A DNA stretch of 63,430 bases, filler included, from Platydemus manokwari (taxonomy: Eukaryota): NCBI GenBank assembly GCA_037951405.1. It is 6 parts of 6 records of this genome, joined end to end, with 100 filler letters (N's around TTAATTAATTAA, not from the genome) between each part and the next. Parts side by side here need not be neighbours in the genome. Positions count along the whole stretch, not along the records: positions 32,489 to 41,733 come from JBBMOY011277983.1; 5 more parts are not named here. One strand, 5' to 3'. Numbering within the stretch: position 1 is the first letter of the stretch; every line of letters starts with the position of its first letter. This document shows, piece after piece, positions 7,822-43,791 of this stretch. Under the pieces are notes generated by a model. It was not told where the DNA came from. It ran no database searches and saw only the letters and a program-made list of their open reading frames with translations. A program made the position numbers and the translations under genes.

Positions 7822-8608
7822 ATGTTTGGGCGGTCATTAAGAGCTGAAACAAGAAGTCGAGCTAAAGAAGATTTAAAAAGAGTATCTAAGACAACTGAAA
7901 GAGTTAGAAAATGGTAATTCTGTAAAATCCGTGGCTTTAATTAATTTCTGGTTATAAAAAGGACTAAAAAATGGGTGTCAATTAAAGATACAACTTTAAT
8001 GGTTTTCAAATGGACACCAGGTCCATATCAGGAAGGATTGTGTGGGAAAAAGAGCGTCTTTCGAAATACTAACGTAGTTAATTCCAATAAAACACCACGA
8101 TCATTCACTTCAGAACAGTTTTCCAATGAAAGCAAAGATTCTGTCGATGACAATATGCCGCCAAATATTGCAGAGGAAAGCAATTGTTCAGAAGTGACCG
8201 ATGTTACAAATATCACTGAAGGCAAACAGCTTGATTGCAATTCGGGTCGTGGATGCAATGGGCAATTGGATGAATCTATCACTCAAGATTCTGAATCTCT
8301 CATCAATGAAGACGATTCCACAAACATGTCCTATCCGAATCCCGGAACATGGAACACACTCTCTCCAAATCAACCCGTCGAAGGTGTGTCTAAATAAAAT
8401 GCCTTGTTTAAAAAATACATTTAAAACGATTACCACGAAGTTGAGCAGTTTTAAAGGCAAAAATCATTCGAGCGTGACTAAAATAATTTTTACTTTCATT
8501 CAATTAATAACGGCATTTTGATTTTTATAAATTTGTTTTTCAGATGACGATACAAAATCGATGAGCGACTTTGTGAGTGCTTTAAACAGAGAGGATTCAA
8601 ATTTGTGA
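7822..8608 (+). CDS. BCL7: BCL7-family protein (BAF/SWI-SNF subunit), 3 exons
   Basis: Exons 7822-7913, 7962-8383 and 8544-8608 give [50 protein letters not shown] (the BCL7 N-terminal signature) plus an acidic Ser/Asn-rich tail. The third exon is less certain; an unspliced stop lies at 8397. Confidence 0.9.
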
Positions 8609-32488: not shown

Positions 32489-35341
32489 TTAAATTTATTC
32501 ATTGAAATACAAATTTTAACTCATTTTTGTAAAAGCCGGAATCATACTAATACACCTAATATAATCTCTGAAAATCAGTCAATTTCTGAGATACAAATTT
32601 CGTTTTTCCAATCATTTTAATTTTTTCGTTTCTGTGTGTTTCAACTCTTTCTGAAACTCTTTCATTACTTCTCGTAAATAATTTTCAAAATGATAGCTAT
32701 TATTATTTATTTTTAAATTTTCTTTTTCCATATCTTTAACAATATCTTTGGCTTTTTAGTTCCATTTTCAGTTAATATTGATCTTCTAACGCTTTCAATT
32801 GAGAATATTTATTACAAACCAATCGATAAAACCTCTATTTGCAACCATTTAAACAAAAATTAAAAATTTCTATAATAATTGAATTTCTGTTGATAGAAAA
32901 TTACAATTTATTGAGTCCTGCTTATACTACCGAATGTAAAGTAATGACTTTCCCATTCTTCAATGAGTGTAAAAAATAATTATAACCATTTGATGTCCAC
33001 AATCAGTAAAAATGAAATCTTTTAAAACAATCCGTTTTTAGCCAATTTATGTTTGCAATTTATAATTATTGAGTAATAATTATGTCATAACCTTTTCGTT
33101 CAGAAATCTCTCGATTTAATCCCGATTTATGTTTAATTAATGGTTTTCATAATCTAAGTTGTTTGGAGCCAAAAAGTTAGCAAAAGCTGATATTGATGTT
33201 GTTTGTAGATTCTTTTTAATCTGATCAGTTCATTACGATTGTCAAACGAAACTAATGCAAGATACCAATGAAAAGCTCTCAAAATGGATGATATATACAA
33301 ACTCCATGACCGCATGCGCTAATAGCCAATCAGATGTCTCCAAAATAACAAAACATTCCTAGTGCACATCAACAAAAGGCAACAAAGACTGAGATACCTT
33401 AATATCATGAGAGTGATAAAAGAATTTTGTAAGAAACTAATAAGTAGACTATTCCAAGGAATGAGAAAGGTTAAACCAACAGTTAAATAGACACAGCAGA
33501 TCGATAAACGAAGTCAAATTATGTTATCATTCTTTTATGTTATCATTCATTGGACAAATTTTTATGGTTGTTGTTTCTATTTCAGTTCTATCTTTTGGAT
33601 GCCGTTCCCATTTTGAACTGATTATTAGCTCTGTTACTGATTGTGATTTAGATTGCAAATATTGTCAGATAGATTTTGAGTGTAGCTTATAATTAAATAT
33701 AATATTCAGCCTCGGTGGATATCTAACACTAGGATAAAATTCCTTTACTCTTTCTTCCATTATTATTGAACTAATATTCCTTATCAGGATAATTATTTTT
33801 AAATATTTTTTATATCTTAATGATCAGTGTAGCCCAGTGGTCTATTAATTAGGATAAATTCCAGGGATTACTTTTGTTGTTTTAAAGAAAAACTTTTTTA
33901 TAATAAGTTAATTTTATAAGGAATATCTTTCTCCTTAAGCTTACCATTATTTAAGTAAGTTTACTCTTTTGTTACCGTTGTTTTGGTCACAAAAAAACCA
34001 AAACATTTACGAAAACCATAGAAATAACACTCAAAAGGTTTATACATACAGACTTGATTAACGCGCGCACCAATACCAAATCCGATTCTTCCGACATAAG
34101 AATCCATATTTAAAATTCAATAATCAAGCGGCAATTATCAACAACTGGCAAAAACATCCATTTTCGCCAATGTCATGAGAGATGTAAGAAAATATGTGAA
34201 AAACTCTATCGAGTGAAAAGCGAAACTCTGAGATATCGAGTGATCAAGTATTGTGCGTCCTTATCTAAGTTAGGTCAGGAGCAATCCTCGATCAGTATTC
34301 CAAATTTATACACGGACACGTTCCGTTATGTATTGTCGAACTTATATTTAAGGGTTTGACCTTGATTTTAAATTTTGTGTACAAAGCTTATACTTTCTAT
34401 TGATAATAAATCTTAGTGATCAACTTATCGTTTGGGGTCAGATATTGTTAAGACACGAGTATTTGTTGCGAAAAAAACTAACATGTATTTAAATATAAAA
34501 GTGATCTTCACGAGGTGGTGAGAGAATCCCTCATCTCGACTCTAAAATAAAATGTTTAATATTTTCTTATAGTTGTTGTTCCTGTTTCGAGCCAGCGACA
34601 GAGTTGGCGTGGTTCAGCTTCTGGGATATCAGATTTCTGAAGTTCCTAATTCGTTTTTGATTTTTCTTGGTTTTTTATTTTTTATGATTTTTGATTTTTT
34701 TCGTTAGGATGTTTCGAGAAGACCATAGATTTGCAGAGTAGATTTGTTAGAATTTAATTGATAATAATTTGATAAAAGTATTTCGTTTTACTTCGGTCAT
34801 TTATTTTCTTTGGCTCGTAGGTATCACAATTTGTAAGTGAGGCAGTTGATTGAAGACATTATTGTTGGGCTTCGAAGCAAAGCGAGTATAGCGCATCAAT
34901 ATGTGGCGATATCTTAATCAAAAATATAATGCAAGAAAAGTAAAGATAAATAATGTTAGAGTTTTTTCAATGGTAAATATTAACAATTAATTATAATGTT
35001 AATTAATTAAAAATAATTTTATAAGTTTAAAATTGTAATGAATAAAGTTTCTAACATATGGTGTGATGAGAAATAATTAAACTAATCATGAGAGTGATAT
35101 TGATGAATGAATCGATTTAATGTGAAAACGGTGATCATTGAAATGAAATGAATTAATAATACATTTTTTTAAGATTATGAATTAATAAGTTAATTTATTG
35201 ATGATATTTCTAAATTAGGTAAACCGATATAAATAGATATAAACAGATATAAATAAGGTGCATGTACTTTTTGTGTTAATGGTCGTGTTGGTCTTGGTCT
35301 GTCTTGTTTAGTGTGGGCTTCTTTTAGTAAAGCTGAAATAA

Positions 35342-38300
35342 TTAGAGAAGACAGAAAATTAATCCTATTGTCATCAAGACTTTGTCATTGTGTGGGTCCC
35401 AGGAGCCAAAGACTCCTACATTTAGTACACCTAACGTTGTTTGATGCCTATTAGTCAATGCTATTTGTTGGGTTAACGATTTATATTTATCATAATTAAG
35501 GGATCTATGTAGTTCAAAGTTAGTGTCCATATCAAATGGAAATTTTAAATCAATAATAAAAGTTTGCTTTTTAGAATTATTTCTTACAATTAAATCGGGT
35601 CTTAATTTAGTATTAATTTCAACTGGGGTAGAGTCAATGTCAGTGTCAATCTCGAGCGATTGTAAATATCTACATATAATGTCTAATATCATTGCATGGC
35701 GTTTACTAGATTTCCCTGGGACTATGGAGCAATAAATATTACATTTCCTGCAATTAATTGATTTATTAAATTTAATGTTTTTTGAGGGTTTCCCACTCAT
35801 TATAATGGGACATTTGGACTGCATCATGGAGTACATCAGATAATTTATGCCTATTGTCAACTGAAAAGAAATAAGTTTGATCATAACCAGTGGTCATCTT
35901 TATATGAATCTGAGATTCTTGATCAATAAAATTAATATTTATTTCAAACTTTCTAACTTAATTTTCTAATGACAATGGGTGTTTCAGGGATAGAATATTG
36001 TCACTTAACCAGGAAAGAGCGGTATCTAAATCATTTGAGTGAGATGGGCTCAATCTTTTATTAACTATATATAGTAAATGATCGATAATAAAATCTCTAA
36101 AAGGGTTATCGAGGCTGATTAAGTAACGGAAACAACAAACTATAGACTGGATACAATATTCTAAAAATGCGAGAATTAAACTCAAACCACCGAGTTTACG
36201 TGGTGAGTAGAAAAAAGGGTATGTTGGAAGATTGTAAGCCATTCATTCTAAGTATTTCTCTAGATAAAAATCTTAATTTCTTATCAAATGATTGTGACCT
36301 ATCGTCGTCATTGCCTTGAACTAAAGTGCGGGAGTCAAGTTGTATCGCTTTAACTTGTTGAATGCTAAAGTGAAAAAGCAGACGTGGATGTAGAAATGTA
36401 TTGTATGCCTGAAATTTTTGTGATGGGTGCAAACGTGATTTAAATATATACTCAAAGTCTGTAATTATCCCATTTAAAATATTAGAAATTGGGGTTCGTT
36501 TTGGTGATTCAAATGGGACTCCTAAATATTTATACATGTTTTCACTATCTACTATTGGGATTGAATCATATTCTAAGTTCAAATCTATCCTATTTGCGGG
36601 GTTATTAGTAAAATATCCACATTTTTGGGAATTAATTTTTACATTAATTGAGTCAGATAGGTGGTAAATATGATTAAGTCGATTTTCTAAATTCTCACCA
36701 GAATTTGCTATAATTACTATATTGTCGGCGTAAGCAAGTGTAGAAAATGGTAAACAATAAACTAATACGGGGTCATTTAATTCAGTAGAACCGGTAAATA
36801 AAAAGTCTATTGATAAACAAAAAAGGGTTATTTGATAGAAGATTACCAGAAATAATCAATTTTAATAACCTATTGTTTAATATAGTTGCGAATAGCCTAT
36901 ATGCTATGTCGTTGATTGCACTGGGTCTCCCGGAAGAAACTTTGTGTGAAGTCGCTTTTTTCCCTGTTTAATTATTAATGAAGTTTTACAAGATAATCAT
37001 TGGTTAGGAATTAATTTTGAGGGTAATATTTTATCAAATAAAGTTAATAAATATACATGCTGTGGGTCAATAGTGACCTAGTCTTTATATGTAATGCCAT
37101 CATTGCCCGGTGCAGAGTTTGATAACCCCTTAAATGCAAAATTTAATTCATCTATTGCTATTGGTTTAAGATTGGAGTTATCGTTAAACACTGTTAATTT
37201 TGAATTTAAACTATTAGTAATTGGCGGAGGTGGTGGTTTAGTAAAGTGTGCTATAATATTATCTATTGTGGGCAATGATGTAGGTGTGCATGATAGATGA
37301 GTTTGCCTTAATGTTTTATTAGGTTGTAGATTAAAATTCTGTCTTAACTTAAAATCTGATAACTCGGGCTAGCAAAATGTAAAACTGATGGTTTAATTAT
37401 TTGTTTAGCAGTAAAACGGGATGAGTCAACTAATTTTAAAGCAATACAAGCCATATTTAATATTTCCGTAAGATTGGGGTTATCATTTTCAATTAATTCA
37501 ATAGCGTCCACTAAAATTGAATGAATTATATTAGATGACGTAATATTATTATTTAAGTCTACCACAGTTGCTTTTGGGAATCGTTAATGAAAAAAGTAGC
37601 GGGATCTACGAAAAAGGAAGAAAATTTATTGGTATCAATAATATACAAGTTCCAATGTTGGTGATTCCAGTGAATCAATCAAAAAGCTATCTCCCAAGAG
37701 GCGAGGTACTTAAAAGGAAATGAATTATAAAAAGACTCAATATCACTATTTAAAATAGCAACTGTGGGTTGTGGTTTAATAAAAATTAATTTAGAGGGGT
37801 TGGGGAGTTTACATCTTATTTATGCCTCTATAACAGAACTGGATAGTCAGTCTATATTAATATCATTGGGGGCCAATTCTATATCCTCATAGGACTGTGG
37901 GGAGATTAAACTACTACTCGTTTATGCTCGTCTATGTGAATCTTAAAACTGGAGACGTTACCTATAAAACCGCAGTGACATAATATGGAAAAATCTATAG
38001 GAATATCTAAATTATGCTTATCCGTATAATGTTTAGGGACGTTCTTAGTGTTGGAGAACGGAAAGCAGTATGTTTTGTCACAGCGGGTACATGACGCGGA
38101 CTTATCATCGAGCATAATCATGTGGAGTGGATTAAAATATTTTCGGACCTTCCATATAAATTATTAGGGATTTTATCTGATTTTATGAGTGTCTGGGAGA
38201 CATCATCAGGGTCAACACTGGTATCAACTGTATTATTTAGGTCAACCTTACTATCATTATAAGTTAGAACTGGTGGGTTTGGAGTTATGTTTAAGTCATG

Positions 38301-38400
38301 TTCAACAGTTTGCGTAGATTGATTATTTAGGGTTTGGGTCGAAGTATCAACTTAATTTGAAGCTATTGGGGAAATAGTAGATAATTCCAAATCAATTAAC
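35342..38400 (-). mobile_element. NeSL-like non-LTR retrotransposon (ZnF - Ulp1 - RT - Zn knuckle - restriction-like endonuclease), internally deleted
   Basis: Zn fingers CTRC...HYTDKH and CHCG...HIDEH. Ulp1 remnant HWNLYIID...FVDPA..NCG. RT motifs SAPGNDGITY, LAYADNI, YKYLGVPF, RKLGGL. RLE: RHAMIL...LRPDLIV...IIDLKFPF...DKYKSL...VGVFGSWDPHND. Confidence 0.92.
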
Positions 38401-38579
38401 CTTTTATTTAAATTATTTGGAGACTCGAAATTGGATTTTTTTTAATTATAAATATAACATAATAACATATGAAAGTTACTTAAGTTATCGACGTTAATTT
38501 TTATTAAAATATTTAAAATAATATTTAAAATGACGTCATTTGTAGTATTATTCTTAAAATGGGGGATATGGATATATTG

Positions 38580-39950
38580 AAATTAATCTATTTTAATTAA
38601 CCTATTGTTAAGGATGGTTGGAAAAATCCTATATGAGGTATCGGTCAATGCTATGGGTCTCCATGAAGAAACTATATGACAGAGATTATCTTTACCCGGT
38701 TTTAAAAGAAGACTTGTTTTACATTTCTTTCTATTGGTCAAGTATAGTTTTATTGGCAAGGATTTTATTAAATAAATGTAATAAATAATTATAATTTGGA
38801 TCTAATTTATTTCAATCTTATACCATCGGTCCCTGGGGGAAAGTTAGATAAATTTTTTAGGCCATTACTTAGTTCTTCTAAGGTTATAGGTTTTAAATTA
38901 GAATTTTCTATCTCTATTGGTAATATTGGGTTAAAACTCGGCGATAGTGGTGGCGGTGCCGGTATTGTAAAATGTTCTATGATATTTTCTAATGTAGGTA
39001 GAGATAGCAAGGTAGATGATCGTAATAATTGTTATATTGTTTTCTTAGGTTGTTGCGTATATTGTTGTTTAAGCCGAAAGTCTTATGATTGTGCGACTTA
39101 AGGTGAAAGACTGACAGCTTGATTTATTGTTTACTTGCAAATCGTGTTGGGTTTATTGCGGAAAGTGCATAGTGTGAGTATGTGCGTGAGATTTGGTGAA
39201 TCATTTCCTAGAATTTTATCGCCTCCAGTATTAAAGGGTAGGAATTATTTGATTGGGTAATATTATTAATATTAATTACTTTTTTCGATTTTAAAATATT
39301 TGAAATTAATTTATTAATTTCAGTTCGAAGGTCGGCGTTGGGTGTGTGATATATATCAGACTGGGCACAGTAATTTATAATGTGTTAGACAATAAATAAA
39401 CCGCAGACTGTGTCATTAATTTGTTTTGGAAGATTAGGAATTAAACTTCTTTGAATTAATAAAATATTTAAATAAATTTTCGTTAAGTTTTCCAATAAAT
39501 TATTCCGAGTCGACCATAATCATTTTTTGGCCTCAGTTAGATAAATGGTGGCAGGGTCAATAAAATATGATGAGTTTTTATTTAAATCAACTATATATAA
39601 GTTCCAGTGGATGAGCCAAAATGCTAAGTTGGGGAATGGAAAAGTCTTATAAAAAAAATACTAAAGTCACGCATTAAAATGGCACTGGATTATTGGAGCT
39701 TAATAAAAATGTAATCTATTTGGTTAGGGTTCTTATATTTAATAAATGCCTCAATTGGGCCGATAAATTATACGGTGAGATTTGAATAACCTCATAAATC
39801 GAGTCAATGTCAGTATCTATGATTGGGGAAGAATTATGTTCGTCATTGTGGTTCTTAAATCTTTTTGCGTTATCTATATACCCACAATGACATAATATAG
39901 TAAACTCAGCTAGAATTTCTTTATTGTGTTTATCATTAAAGTGCTTAATG
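38580..39950 (-). mobile_element. Second, diverged, 3'-truncated copy of the NeSL-like element in tandem
   Basis: KHFNDKH...ILCHCGY. Ulp1 domain IHWNLYIVD...YFIDPA...PKQINDTVCGLF. Then LPTLENIIEHF, PPGTDGI, SLLLKPGKD and SSWRPIALTDTSYRIF. Confidence 0.88.
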
Positions 39951-40717
39951 GGTCTTGAGGGTTTTAAGTTTCGAGCCATGTGCGTCATGAAGGTTGAAAT
40001 TTGCGATGAAGATAATCTGAGCAAGCTGAGATCAATACTGGTGTGCTTGATGTACAGTTGTGAGAATTGCTGGAAATCTGGGTTGAAGATGATGATCTTA
40101 TTTGAGTTTGATGGTGATGGGGATCAGACTCAATACATCGATTCTGTGGTCTAAGGTTCTCTGGATATGCCTGATCGTTTTGTATATTGTTTCAATGTCG
40201 ATCCGTCTGAAGGAGAAGTTAGGGCTTTTTTGTTTATTTCTTGAGTTCACAAAATTTATTACAAGCCTTACGGCATGGATCTTGACATTCTGGAAGTACA
40301 AAAAGAGGTTGTTGTTTCTTGGTATAATGTTTTGTTATGCCGCAAACGGAGCGACATTGAAAAGGTTCCAAAGCTTCAAATCTGTTGAGCCACGGTCGAG
40401 ATCATTGGAAGCGTTGCCTAGAAAGACTTGATTAGGTTGTTTAATCGGTGTCATGTATGTTATGTGCTTTCATATTTCTAGTTACATTGTGTTTATGTCT
40501 GCTCTTTTTATGTTGGTGTTTACGTTGTGTGCTAGACTTTTGCGTCTCTCTATTGTGTTTTTTGGTGTCTCAAGTGGTAAGCAGAGTAGTTGTTCGCCTC
40601 TCTTAAATTTCTTTTCGTGTTGCAAGTAAACGATGTTTGCCTTTTCTTTTATTTTTGTGATATTTATGTGGTCGAGGGGTACTCTGTTGCATGTGTTCCT
40701 TATGTAGCCAAAGCAGT

Positions 40718-40797
40718 AGTTGGAAAATGGTTGTCCTAACCCAAATCCAACAAATTTGAGCGAAGCGAATTCGAGTTCGGACAACCATTTTCCAACT
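40718..40797. repeat. Perfect 19-bp inverted repeat (extends to about 29 bp imperfectly) with GCGAAGC in the loop
   Basis: agttggaaaatggttgtcc (40718-40736) / ggacaaccattttccaact (40779-40797). GCGAAGC at 40760-40766. Confidence 0.9.
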
Positions 40798-40959
40798 TCT
40801 TAGTAAAACAATAAAACATTAAAGCCTCGCATATCACCCCGAATTGCACATTTTGCAATTACGGTTAGTTTTTCACTGTAAACTTACTACTCCGATTTTC
40901 GGCGATTGGAAAATCATAAAATAATAACAAGACAGTAAATAAAAAAGATAAATATAAAA

Positions 40960-41733
40960 ATGGATGAACCCAATTTGGAATATTTTTGTGAAGTGTGTTA
41001 TAGATATTTTAAAATTAAAACAGCATTAATATCTCACAGAAAATCAAGAGATCATTTAATGAGAGAGAATGGAAGAGGAGGAGAAAATAGAAATGTAATA
41101 CAAAATGAATTCAAAGAAGTTTATGAAAGATATAATTATGAAAATAGATATCATAACGTAAAATTAGACTTGTATAAAGAGTGTAATATAAAGAGAATAT
41201 ATGAATTAAGAGATGAATTAGTTGATATAATAAATAGTTATTTTGTTTCAATAAAGAGTAAATTTATGTATCAAATAACAATTAACTGTGAATATGAAAA
41301 AGAAGGAGAATTAATAGATTATAGATATTATACAAATCCAGAAAGAATATCAAATCAAAGTTTGATTAATGAAAGTATTTATAATCATTTAGATGAATTA
41401 AATGGTTATATAACTGAGAGAGAATTACCTAATGGATCTGGTTGGAGACTTGTTAAAATAAAGTCATTACTTCTTGAGTTATCAAAGTATAATTCATTAG
41501 CTGGAAGTAGTTATGTAAAAATACCTAGAACTTCAAGAGAAATATTAAACATAAAGAATAATGATAATAAGTGTTTCTTATATTCAATAATAGCTCACTT
41601 TTTTCCAGCACCATCACATTCAGATAGAGTATGTAACTACAGTCCTTTTGTAGAGGATTTAAATATTGAAGGATTATCATTTCCAATGCAAATTAAAGAT
41701 ATTCCCAAGTTTGAAGAAATGAATGATATTAAA
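40960..41733 (+). mobile_element. Polinton/Maverick-type protein-primed DNA polymerase B, N-terminal part (C2H2 ZnF, terminal-protein-like region, OTU-like protease), truncated by contig end
   Basis: Intronless and stop-free. CEVC..F.....LISHRKSRDH zinc finger; GSGWRL...GSSYVKIP...ILNIKNNDNKCFLYSI...DRVCNY...LNIEGLSFPMQIKDIPKFEEMN. This motif string is typical of invertebrate Polinton pPolB N-termini, with DNKCF matching the OTU catalytic Cys. The polymerase core is not visible. Confidence 0.8.
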
Positions 41734-42284: not shown

Positions 42285-43791
42285 AAAAAACCAAACAACT
42301 CGCATTACCGTTCTTGATTTTAAAGATAATTTTCTCAAACAAGATGCAGCATTTGTTTTGTGGGTTGAATCTGTTTCAATCATTAAATTGATGGAATTTT
42401 CAGCTCATGAAAACGAAAATATTCCTCCTTGTACAATTGACACTATTTCACCCTTTGATATCAATAATGATTTGTTAATATTTCTCAAGTATTATGATTA
42501 TCGGTCGAAATCCATTCATTTCTGTGGACACATTTTTATTCGAATCCAATCACAACTCAATGTTATCATGCCCGAAATGTGGCGCAGAGCCAATTTACCT
42601 GTAAATACGAAATTATTAATTTACGAAGAACGTAAACCGCAAAGCATAGAACTGTTAAATCCCGATGCAAAAATTGAACAATGTGTGGAAATTTTAATGG
42701 ATGGAAATATTATCGTCTTTCAAGAACAATTACAGAAAAATGATACCGAAGATTTTTCAACTGTCATTGATTATTTCAATGATTATTTCTATCAGAATGA
42801 TATTCTTTTTGTTGATAAAAATAATATCGAAGAACAAGGTTTTGTATTAAGATTTTCTGGTAAATCATCATATGAAGATATGACCAAAGCTGTGGGACAT
42901 TATCTCAATTATCCTAGTGATAAAATTCAATTTTTCAGATCACAACCCGGATTTTCAAATAAAGAAGTGATTGGGAGTTGTATTAGATCTACATTTGATG
43001 GTGAAATCAAGGATTTGTTGGCACAATATCCACGCAATAAAGGTCAACGGAGAATTTATTATGAGAAATTGTCGATACCGGTAGAAGAATTGGAAAATAT
43101 GCGCCAAGTTCATTGTTTTTATGTTAACGACAAATTGAGCGAAGAATTACTCTATACTGTTAATTTAAATCGTTCAGCTTCAATTAAAGATCTCATCGAT
43201 GCTATTTCGAAGCAAATAAACATCCGTCAATCGTCAAATGATCAATCAAATAAACCATCCACCGACGACCATCATGATTCCGAAGAAGATCTTTCGAAAA
43301 ATTTTCGAGTATTTGAAATCAGTTCTTGTAAAATCATCCAACAATACTCCCTGGAAACGAAAATATCACAAATTCAAACATCGATCAATAGGCATTTACG
43401 TGTTGAGGAAGTTCCAGTTGATGAAAGAGAAATCGAGCCGAATGAAGAATTAATTTATGTGGCTCATTTTCATAAAGATTCCTATTCGACTTTTGGAATT
43501 CCGTTTGCTTTGAAAATACGTGACGGAGAAACGTTTAATGCTGTTAAAGAAAGAATTAAACGTCGTTTGGATATATCTGACAAAGAATTTGAAAAGTGGC
43601 GATTCGCTATTGTCGGTGGTAGAGCATCTTATTTACCTGACGATCCAGATTCTATCGTAAGAACCAACGTGTTTCACTCTCATAATTTCAATACAGTTTC
43701 TGGAACCAGACCGTGGCTAGGAATTGAACATAAACCATCAAAACGACCCAGAGCAACTGGTTGTGAAAAGCCAATTAAAATTCATAATTGA
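42285..43791 (+). CDS. USP7: Ubiquitin carboxyl-terminal hydrolase 7, final exon (UBL domains and activating tail); upstream exons not in this contig
   Basis: Acceptor ttttag at 42284, then a long open frame: LLIFLKYYD, LMDGNIIVFQ, DKIQFF, VAHFHKDSYSTFGIPF, KEFEKWRFAIV, RPWLGIEH...EKPIKIHN*, matching the USP7 C-terminus. Confidence 0.95.

Follow-up and report, generated by a model that had tools for sequence, protein, structure and literature searches.

The window, a stretch of 63,430 nucleotides (filler included) joined from six parts of the Platydemus manokwari genome (GCA_037951405.1), contains at positions 32489-41733 the whole of contig G000:C1277983 (JBBMOY011277983.1), from a 911-Mb assembly of 1.99 million contigs. 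The contig ends inside a gene for a family B DNA polymerase of the protein-primed kind (pPolB). Upstream of this gene lies a structured terminus whose first bases, AGTAGT, begin at position 40715 (contig base 8227), 245 nt from the ATG at 40960. The features of the locus are as follows.

40300-40714, minus strand: host flank, part of an interrupted non-LTR retroelement (10 contigs stop at 40713)
40709-40714, no strand: expected site of the 6-bp target-site duplication (TSD) of the window copy, from the sister insertion L009/L026
40715-40720, plus strand: terminal AGTAGT microrepeat, the element's first bases (16/39 contigs start at 40714-40715)
40715-40800, no strand: terminal fold-back (97-101 nt in intact sister copies)
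40715-41045, plus strand: terminal inverted repeat (TIR), ~330 bp long; it takes in the first ~28 codons, which encode the zinc finger and are common to the polymerase and the other-end ORF
40757-40769, plus strand: purine tip with the GNA mini-hairpin GCGAAGC (40760-40766) between GA steps, inverted here and normally on the 3'-end strand
40846-40859, plus strand: conserved internal motif GCACATTTTGCAAT, overlapping hairpin 2; aligned copies keep the sequence, not the stem
40894-40915, plus strand: hairpin 3, not conserved (fully paired in 1/20 copies)
40960-41733, plus strand: N-terminus of the polymerase, 258 aa, cut by the contig end, with a C2H2 zinc finger at its start
Residues ~64-179 of the window polymerase: terminal-protein domain, with Ser160 in GSG
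C-terminal part of the window polymerase fragment: start of the vOTU-like domain, with a putative Cys205 assigned by motif position

Minus-strand remnants of non-LTR retroelements with reverse transcriptase (RT) extend across 35345-40713 and include two partly duplicated copies ~1.8 kb apart; an RT fragment at 36199-36855 matches RVT_1 with an E value of 4e-6, under the curated cut-off. The remnants also contain what we take to be a restriction-like endonuclease motif, for which there was no Pfam match. In another part of the window, an uninterrupted 466-aa ORF (42391-43791) matches the USP7 C-terminal domains PF14533 and PF12436.

The junction was searched with positions 40600-40960 against the assembly contigs, and 40 of 89 candidate contigs were scored, 39 of them besides the source. 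Sixteen of these 39 begin at 40714-40715 and have unrelated flanks, 13 begin further inside the element, and 10 match the left part alone (40600-40713), ending at 40713. None of the 39 spans the 40713/40715 junction. All five fetched copies of the left-flank repeat continue past the junction with a common sequence that is absent from the window, and the flanks of hairpin-bearing copies are mutually unrelated. The earlier note had placed the left end of the element at 40715, and this is borne out by the sharp start of homology, which had no upstream continuation among the 39 contigs, and by the unrelated flanks: the element, a Polinton lodged in a retroelement, has its left end at position 40715. 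A pattern search for the right junction or partner end of the window copy gave no match, and none of the loci compared had the retroelement continuation adjoining a terminus. L001 and L012, whose flanks share a 5-bp inverted match, were rejected as paired ends; the match was taken as chance because the L012 flank is not the retroelement.

Longer homologues of the window ORF are family B polymerases with full polymerase motifs and an Endonuclease_7 domain that has a DHDH...CN core. A first look yielded 3329 candidate homologues in the genome; DNA_pol_B_2 matches in L046 had E values of 3e-4 and 0.011, under the cut-off. In AlphaFold, the window protein is modelled with a mean pLDDT of 59 (mostly 77-87 for residues 81-150 and less near Ser160). 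The model has a sheet of four strands and two helices. A GSG loop, placed after the second helix and before the last strand, holds Ser160, which 6/6 aligned sequences keep unchanged. Structurally the model is closest to 4IR1, the little finger of Pol IV (Z 8.3, rmsd 2.9, 96 aligned), and the top Foldseek match is an adintovirus protein (E 9e-9). Likeness to the Pol IV little finger is described as a signature of the PRD1-like terminal-protein domain in PMC11161782, whose text also describes this terminal-protein topology with a Ser as in the window polymerase. As modelled, the polymerase keeps the terminal-protein fold with a priming-type Ser160. The homologues, the 4IR1 match and the adintovirus match together establish the downstream gene as a Polinton-type pPolB, as had been proposed. 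The accompanying suggestion, a structured origin in place of protein priming, is unsupported because the terminal-protein fold and the priming-type Ser are kept; for a dedicated recombination site, the other role suggested, we found no evidence.

The family displays a pPolB, TIRs starting with AG/AGT, a 6-bp TSD, an rve integrase, and a packaging ATPase with capsids, and the element is an endogenous Polinton. These genes are distributed over sister contigs: the second end is linked to the integrase, the ATPase and the capsids, and the polymerase is linked to the same capsid block on its opposite side. Contig C1687955 (L239), of a sister subfamily, combines a fold-back end, the other-end ORF, an ATPase, a double jelly-roll (DJR) major capsid protein (PF21738, over the cut-off) and a putative minor capsid protein. 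The rve integrase fragment beside the other-end ORF in L229 has an E value of 1.2e-4, under the cut-off; the integrase is linked to sister contigs, and no contig ties it to the window's own subfamily. Two further loci were noted. L096/L252 (G000:C1140117) represents a different Polinton lineage, with a polymerase, a PLA2-domain gene and an integrase in tandem in long open frames. In L255 (G000:C1849278:3000-6831), a Polinton fragment with the second-end ORF lies between inverted repeats of ~155 bp that are of a different type; another TIR element may have captured it.

At about 41045, copies of the element split into a second ORF. This ORF is preceded by the same terminus and has its first ~28 codons in common with the polymerase before diverging (680 candidates at first look). 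The TIR is therefore ~330 bp long, and since it covers these codons the two genes share their N-terminal zinc finger. The other-end ORF, ~167 aa (L225:1423-1923, L131:803 onward and many more), is without a Pfam match beyond the finger. L009 and L026 belong to a single insertion as its two ends, each with the family terminus and the fold-back. A 6-bp duplication is common to the two flanks, which are continuous in eight empty-site copies of the host repeat; nine copies had been fetched, one of which ends before the site. Flank 6-mer pairing by itself is weak (4 observed against a null mean of 1.3 and maximum of 4). Inverted ends with a 6-bp TSD, predicted from the window, thus hold for the family, and the partner end of the window copy itself was not found. 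None of 24 long loci checked holds both ends of an element on one contig. A second 6-bp inverted flank match occurs in L010, where the minus strand at 1435-1500 has a 14-nt copy of the element end, 65 bp upstream of the main end and flanked by the reverse complement of the main end's 6-bp flank; this looks like a local inversion bringing in the other junction.

The structures that had been noted upstream of the ATG are all present as described: AGTAGT, a perfect 19-bp inverted repeat (40718-40736/40779-40797), GCGAAGC, and hairpins at 40839-40864 and 40894-40915 that pair fully in the window. The DNA folding energy of 40700-40960 is -39.2 kcal/mol, against -18.9 +/- 2.9 for shuffles (z -6.95, 0/200). 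The main fold-back, 40715-40800, has 32-nt arms that are 88% complementary. Its tip is inverted, ~11 nt are deleted from the second arm, and one pair is broken at 40798; the window copy is a rearranged minority form with an inverted tip and a deletion in its second arm. The plus-strand orientation of GCGAAGC is accordingly that of a minority isomer, most copies having the motif on the opposite strand. The GA steps on either side of the GNA tip could, we presume, form tandem sheared G.A pairs.

The two smaller hairpins fared differently. Each is fully paired in 1/20 aligned copies, namely the window itself. They were rejected as structural elements, and the proposed cluster of three hairpins is not supported. 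The motif GCACATTTTGCAAT within hairpin 2 may be a protein-binding or promoter site; in the sister families L099, L219 and L226 it sits within a large loop.

About 100 distinct termini were compared, of which 37 were chosen by eye as intact, with both arms and a short tip; two of the 37, with a flank in common, probably represent a single insertion. In the intact copies it is the outer ~97-101 nt of the TIR (~330 bp) that fold back on themselves. Mismatches common to at least three copies (families A-C) are, on the plus strand with its 5' end at the terminus, ten C.A, three C.T, one C.C and one T.T. The 3'-end strand has G.T, G.A and G.G (14:0) and A.A at the same places, and none has the opposite polarity; independent sites number ~6-7, not 14, because positions 27, 32 and 33 are inherited across families A-C. 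Private mismatches, by comparison, show no such bias (17:12 and 10:10; tested against the shared ones, Fisher p 0.017 and 0.0013). Eight copies of seven further families gave a mismatch polarity of 24:7. The 3'-end strand folds better in 29/29 pyrimidine-tip copies, an asymmetry that partly restates the G.T versus A.C count.

The tip has the same preference for one strand. On the plus strand it is pyrimidine-rich in 29 and purine-rich in 8 of the 37 intact copies. The purine strand carries C-GNA-G in 28/37, with N being A in 15, C in 8, T in 4 and G in 1; by sequence these 28 copies have the d(GCGNAGC) features of a C-GNA-G loop, a two-pair stem and a free N. In the variant AC-GAA-GT one stem pair is swapped. 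When the pattern was searched genome-wide with a free NNN loop, 16/19 matches were GNA and the other three lay outside termini; in viral contigs the tip pattern gave two matches, and the one examined sits outside any hairpin. According to PMC13037366, GNA is the only one of the 64 triloops that forms the mini-hairpin. Shared mismatches and the GNA tip favour the strand whose 3' end is at the terminus. The fold-back is a real, selected feature, and the idea that the big hairpin is a selected single-strand structure is upheld by the polarised mismatches and the conserved GNA tip.

The fold from AGTAG to CTACT persists even in families whose stems are entirely different. Several families have only a 25-30-bp outer stem around a loop of 110-230 nt. 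The terminal duplex on the 3'-end strand is therefore the common denominator. Large-loop sister families are represented by L219, L222, L226, L212, L231, L099, L044, L075 and L218, and several of them enclose a GCACATTTTGCAAT-like motif, which is outside the hairpin in the window's family.

Inversions confined to the tip, with the stem polarity unchanged, were found in 8/37 intact copies, a 29:8 distribution that departs from 1:1 (p 0.0008). Both tip orientations are present in families A, B and H, and 0/10 tips of family C are inverted. At least three tip variants of family A occur both ways round, so tip inversion has recurred. Stem mismatches are reversed in 0/36 intact copies that have mismatches. 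Inversion of a spacer by intermolecular template switching is described in PMC8604942, and the tip inversions fit template switching rather than transfer of a whole hairpin. An assembly artefact was rejected as their source, the perfect inner stem of ~9-10 bp being under the assembly k-mer length; k-mer contigs of run X1, which may be the same data set, also carry an inverted tip.

Broken termini point to the tip as well. By hand tally, 26 of 32 termini without a first arm begin within positions 41-57, which is the tip (binomial p about 6e-15, computed for 25/32). Where one arm is overwritten by the other's complement, ~10/11 copies, judged by eye, are missing an arm wholly or in part. In about seven copies (L005, L019, L027, L033, L164, L172 and L194) the sequence opens with the second arm's complement. 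All copies with a reversed first arm are without the second arm, as would be expected for template-switch homogenisation followed by breakage (cf. PMC8604942). The bias of starts towards the tip and the arm loss in overwritten copies make it likely that the structure forms in vivo and breaks at the tip; perfect versions of the fold-back likely do not persist. In L019 (G000:C1285397:1-388), two element ends stand back to back via a single half-hairpin, one side like polymerase-end copies and the other like the second-ORF end; it could be an integrated circle, a junction within a concatemer or a tip break that was repaired. In L011 a 548-nt insertion is flanked by half-tips in inverted orientation. 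These single cases would also fit hairpin-closed intermediates, which could account for the 26 truncated ends at the tip as well.

To our knowledge, the copying of displaced strands and the preparation of ends have never been observed in Polintons; Kapitonov and Jurka are said to have put forward a racket model in 2006. We lean towards a reading in which the fold-back forms on the displaced strand as a local panhandle that rebuilds the duplex origin for protein-primed replication. On a linear genome in free form, the terminal-protein domain would prime at AGTAGT, and one strand would be freed by displacement. The 3' end of this strand would fold at once, its G.T and G.A pairs and GNA tip making a stable, nuclease-shielded isomer. 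The perfect outer 22-26 bp would then give back a double-stranded end, at which protein-primed initiation could take place a second time with no need for distant TIRs to pair, and the hairpin polarity would thereby stay fixed. Template switches of the polymerase inside the short inner stem may sometimes invert the tip alone, as in the window copy. Once integrated, the hairpin would be a fragile site, with mismatches likely limiting arm loss. The local panhandle is the simplest model for the kept terminal protein, AGTAGT, fixed polarity, 3'-strand mismatches and optional tips. Strand polarity as such fits any function of the 3'-end strand, be it self-priming, end protection or packaging.

Self-priming would make replication a hybrid: the folded 3' end would be extended into a hairpin-closed duplex or inverted dimer, which the endonuclease VII/HNH domain of the polymerase would resolve asymmetrically, the mismatches keeping polarity. 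A paired 3'-OH is a ready primer. The Endonuclease_7 domain with its DHDH...CN core, the 26/32 truncated ends that start within the tip, the end-to-end junction with one tip in L019 and the inverted half-tips of L011 all speak for this scheme, and hairpin priming has been proposed for the palindromes of virophages and of polinton-like viruses (PLVs) (bioRxiv 10.64898/2026.07.28.741278). Yet the terminal-protein domain and the AGTAGT repeat are kept, no intact copy has a transferred (fully inverted) hairpin, and the large-loop families are without a defined tip; tip breaks are moreover expected from host processing of integrated palindromes, and pPolB endonuclease domains are read as intein or homing insertions in PMC11161782. 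We regard self-priming as an unlikely though serious alternative. Equally speculative is a large clade of Polintons, with endonuclease VII in the polymerase, that would have two modes of replication, terminal-protein priming at open ends and hairpin self-priming from the strand-polarised 3' fold-back with its GA/GNA cap, and in which the nuclease domain of the polymerase would act as terminal resolvase. No HUH Rep nickase was present in the ORFs scanned at the loci examined; the Endonuclease_7 activity of the polymerase is putative.

A role outside initiation is rather doubtful. The fold-back would then help to excise the element from host DNA that is single-stranded, shield the 3' end, or act in packaging through a signal read from mismatches as in poxvirus telomeres. 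Such roles would draw on the nuclease resistance of mini-hairpins (PMC13037366), on the need for vaccinia hairpin mismatches in packaging and not in DNA synthesis (PMC8956199), and on the packaging ATPase and capsid genes of the family. Against them, all families have just one feature in common, a perfect outer duplex that starts at the priming microrepeat, which is what an origin needs, and mismatch positions and tips vary between families. It is improbable that the fold-back is a neutral relic, an end duplicated long ago by folding back and retained without selection: fold-back copying of linear ends is common and many copies have lost an arm, but stems stay paired though their sequences diverge completely between families, shared mismatches are polarised and private ones are not, and the loop varies at the N of GNA alone, which largely refutes this reading. 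Obligatory flip-flop of the parvovirus/poxvirus type, with the whole hairpin inverted at each replication round, is highly improbable and was rejected, unless integration selects one isomer: both tip orientations in families A, B and H, the inverted tip in X1 and the ~7 copies starting with the second arm's complement would suit it, but the tips are 29:8 rather than 1:1, family C has none inverted, stem mismatches are never reversed in the 36 copies, and copies with a reversed first arm all lack the second.

The family resembles Polintons/Mavericks of the adintovirus type (TP-vOTU-pPolB) in its AG-started TIRs, 6-bp TSD, terminal-protein fold of the pPolB and endonuclease insertion, and, in sister contigs, in its rve integrase, A32-type ATPase and double jelly-roll capsid. 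It differs in that each TIR starts with a ~100-nt fold-back with strand-polarised mismatches and a GNA tip. In the available text of the nematode Polinton preprint (10.1101/2023.08.22.554363) and the adintovirus paper (PMC8502044), the word 'hairpin' has no occurrence. Among the main texts of openly accessible papers that were searched, none describes mismatch polarity, GNA tips or inverted tips for the TIRs of Polintons.

Terminal palindromes have been reported in integrated virophages of Halocafeteria seosinensis and in PLV subtype 4, mostly non-pPolB (bioRxiv 10.64898/2026.07.28.741278). There too, in integrated polisuviruses, the palindrome is inside the TIR and adjoins the TSD. Those palindromes go preferentially with non-pPolB replication genes (52-nt in subtype 5), whereas ours accompany a pPolB whose terminal-protein domain is retained; the polarity of mismatches, the GNA tip and the inverted tips present here are unmentioned in the available portions of that preprint. 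The panhandle is the standard model for displaced strands, and PMC11886824 describes it as being without direct evidence even for adenovirus and PRD1. Those systems likewise prime by protein at a terminal direct microrepeat and rebuild a duplex origin on the displaced strand (PMC11886824), but they pair two distant ITRs, and here the duplex would be rebuilt within one end. Parvovirus ITRs and poxvirus telomeres are imperfect hairpins with two inverted-complement forms and conserved mismatches (PMC11575299, PMC8956199). The present termini share all three properties, but only the 12-22-nt tip inverts, in ~1/5 of copies, the stem polarity is fixed, and the loci examined contain no HUH Rep gene. 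The C-GNA-G loop with a free N is common to the d(GCGNAGC) hairpins of phage G4, ssiA and N4 origins or promoters (PMC13037366); here it stands atop a ~43-bp terminal stem of a eukaryotic viral element and is absent from the large-loop sister families. Bidnavirus ITRs are stated to form no hairpins (PMC4061559).

The ~100 dispersed termini amount to a natural mutagenesis that tells which strand must fold, that the outer AGTAG duplex is indispensable and that the tip is optional, and they give exact oligonucleotide substrates for distinguishing protein priming from self-priming. They suggest a function that the endonuclease VII domain of these polymerases, so far unexplained, might perform, extend terminal palindromes from non-pPolB protist virophages to pPolB Polintons, and flag Polinton ends as fragile sites in the host genome. 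Two-mode replication, if true, would join end replication of the adenovirus type and of the parvovirus/poxvirus type in a single enzyme, as a working link between the two.

Relatives beyond the genome were sought in 107 viral and metagenome loci with related polymerases, 52 of which had at least 900 bp upstream of the match. A fold-back lies within 1.8 kb upstream in 8/52, the clearest being those of L289, L314, L347 and L354 (145-249 nt). In L314 and L354, both metagenome relatives, the putative termini have GA steps below the tip, on the strand that carries them in the P. manokwari copies, and a GGGTTCTGG stem motif like that of families B and C; the stem mismatches of these two show no polarity, which counts against the panhandle reading. 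Long fold-backs, where an element probably ends, were also seen in the polymerase contigs L278 (4675-4776 and 13253-13287), L343 (5567-5734) and L277 (5755-5831), some of them right after the polymerase gene.
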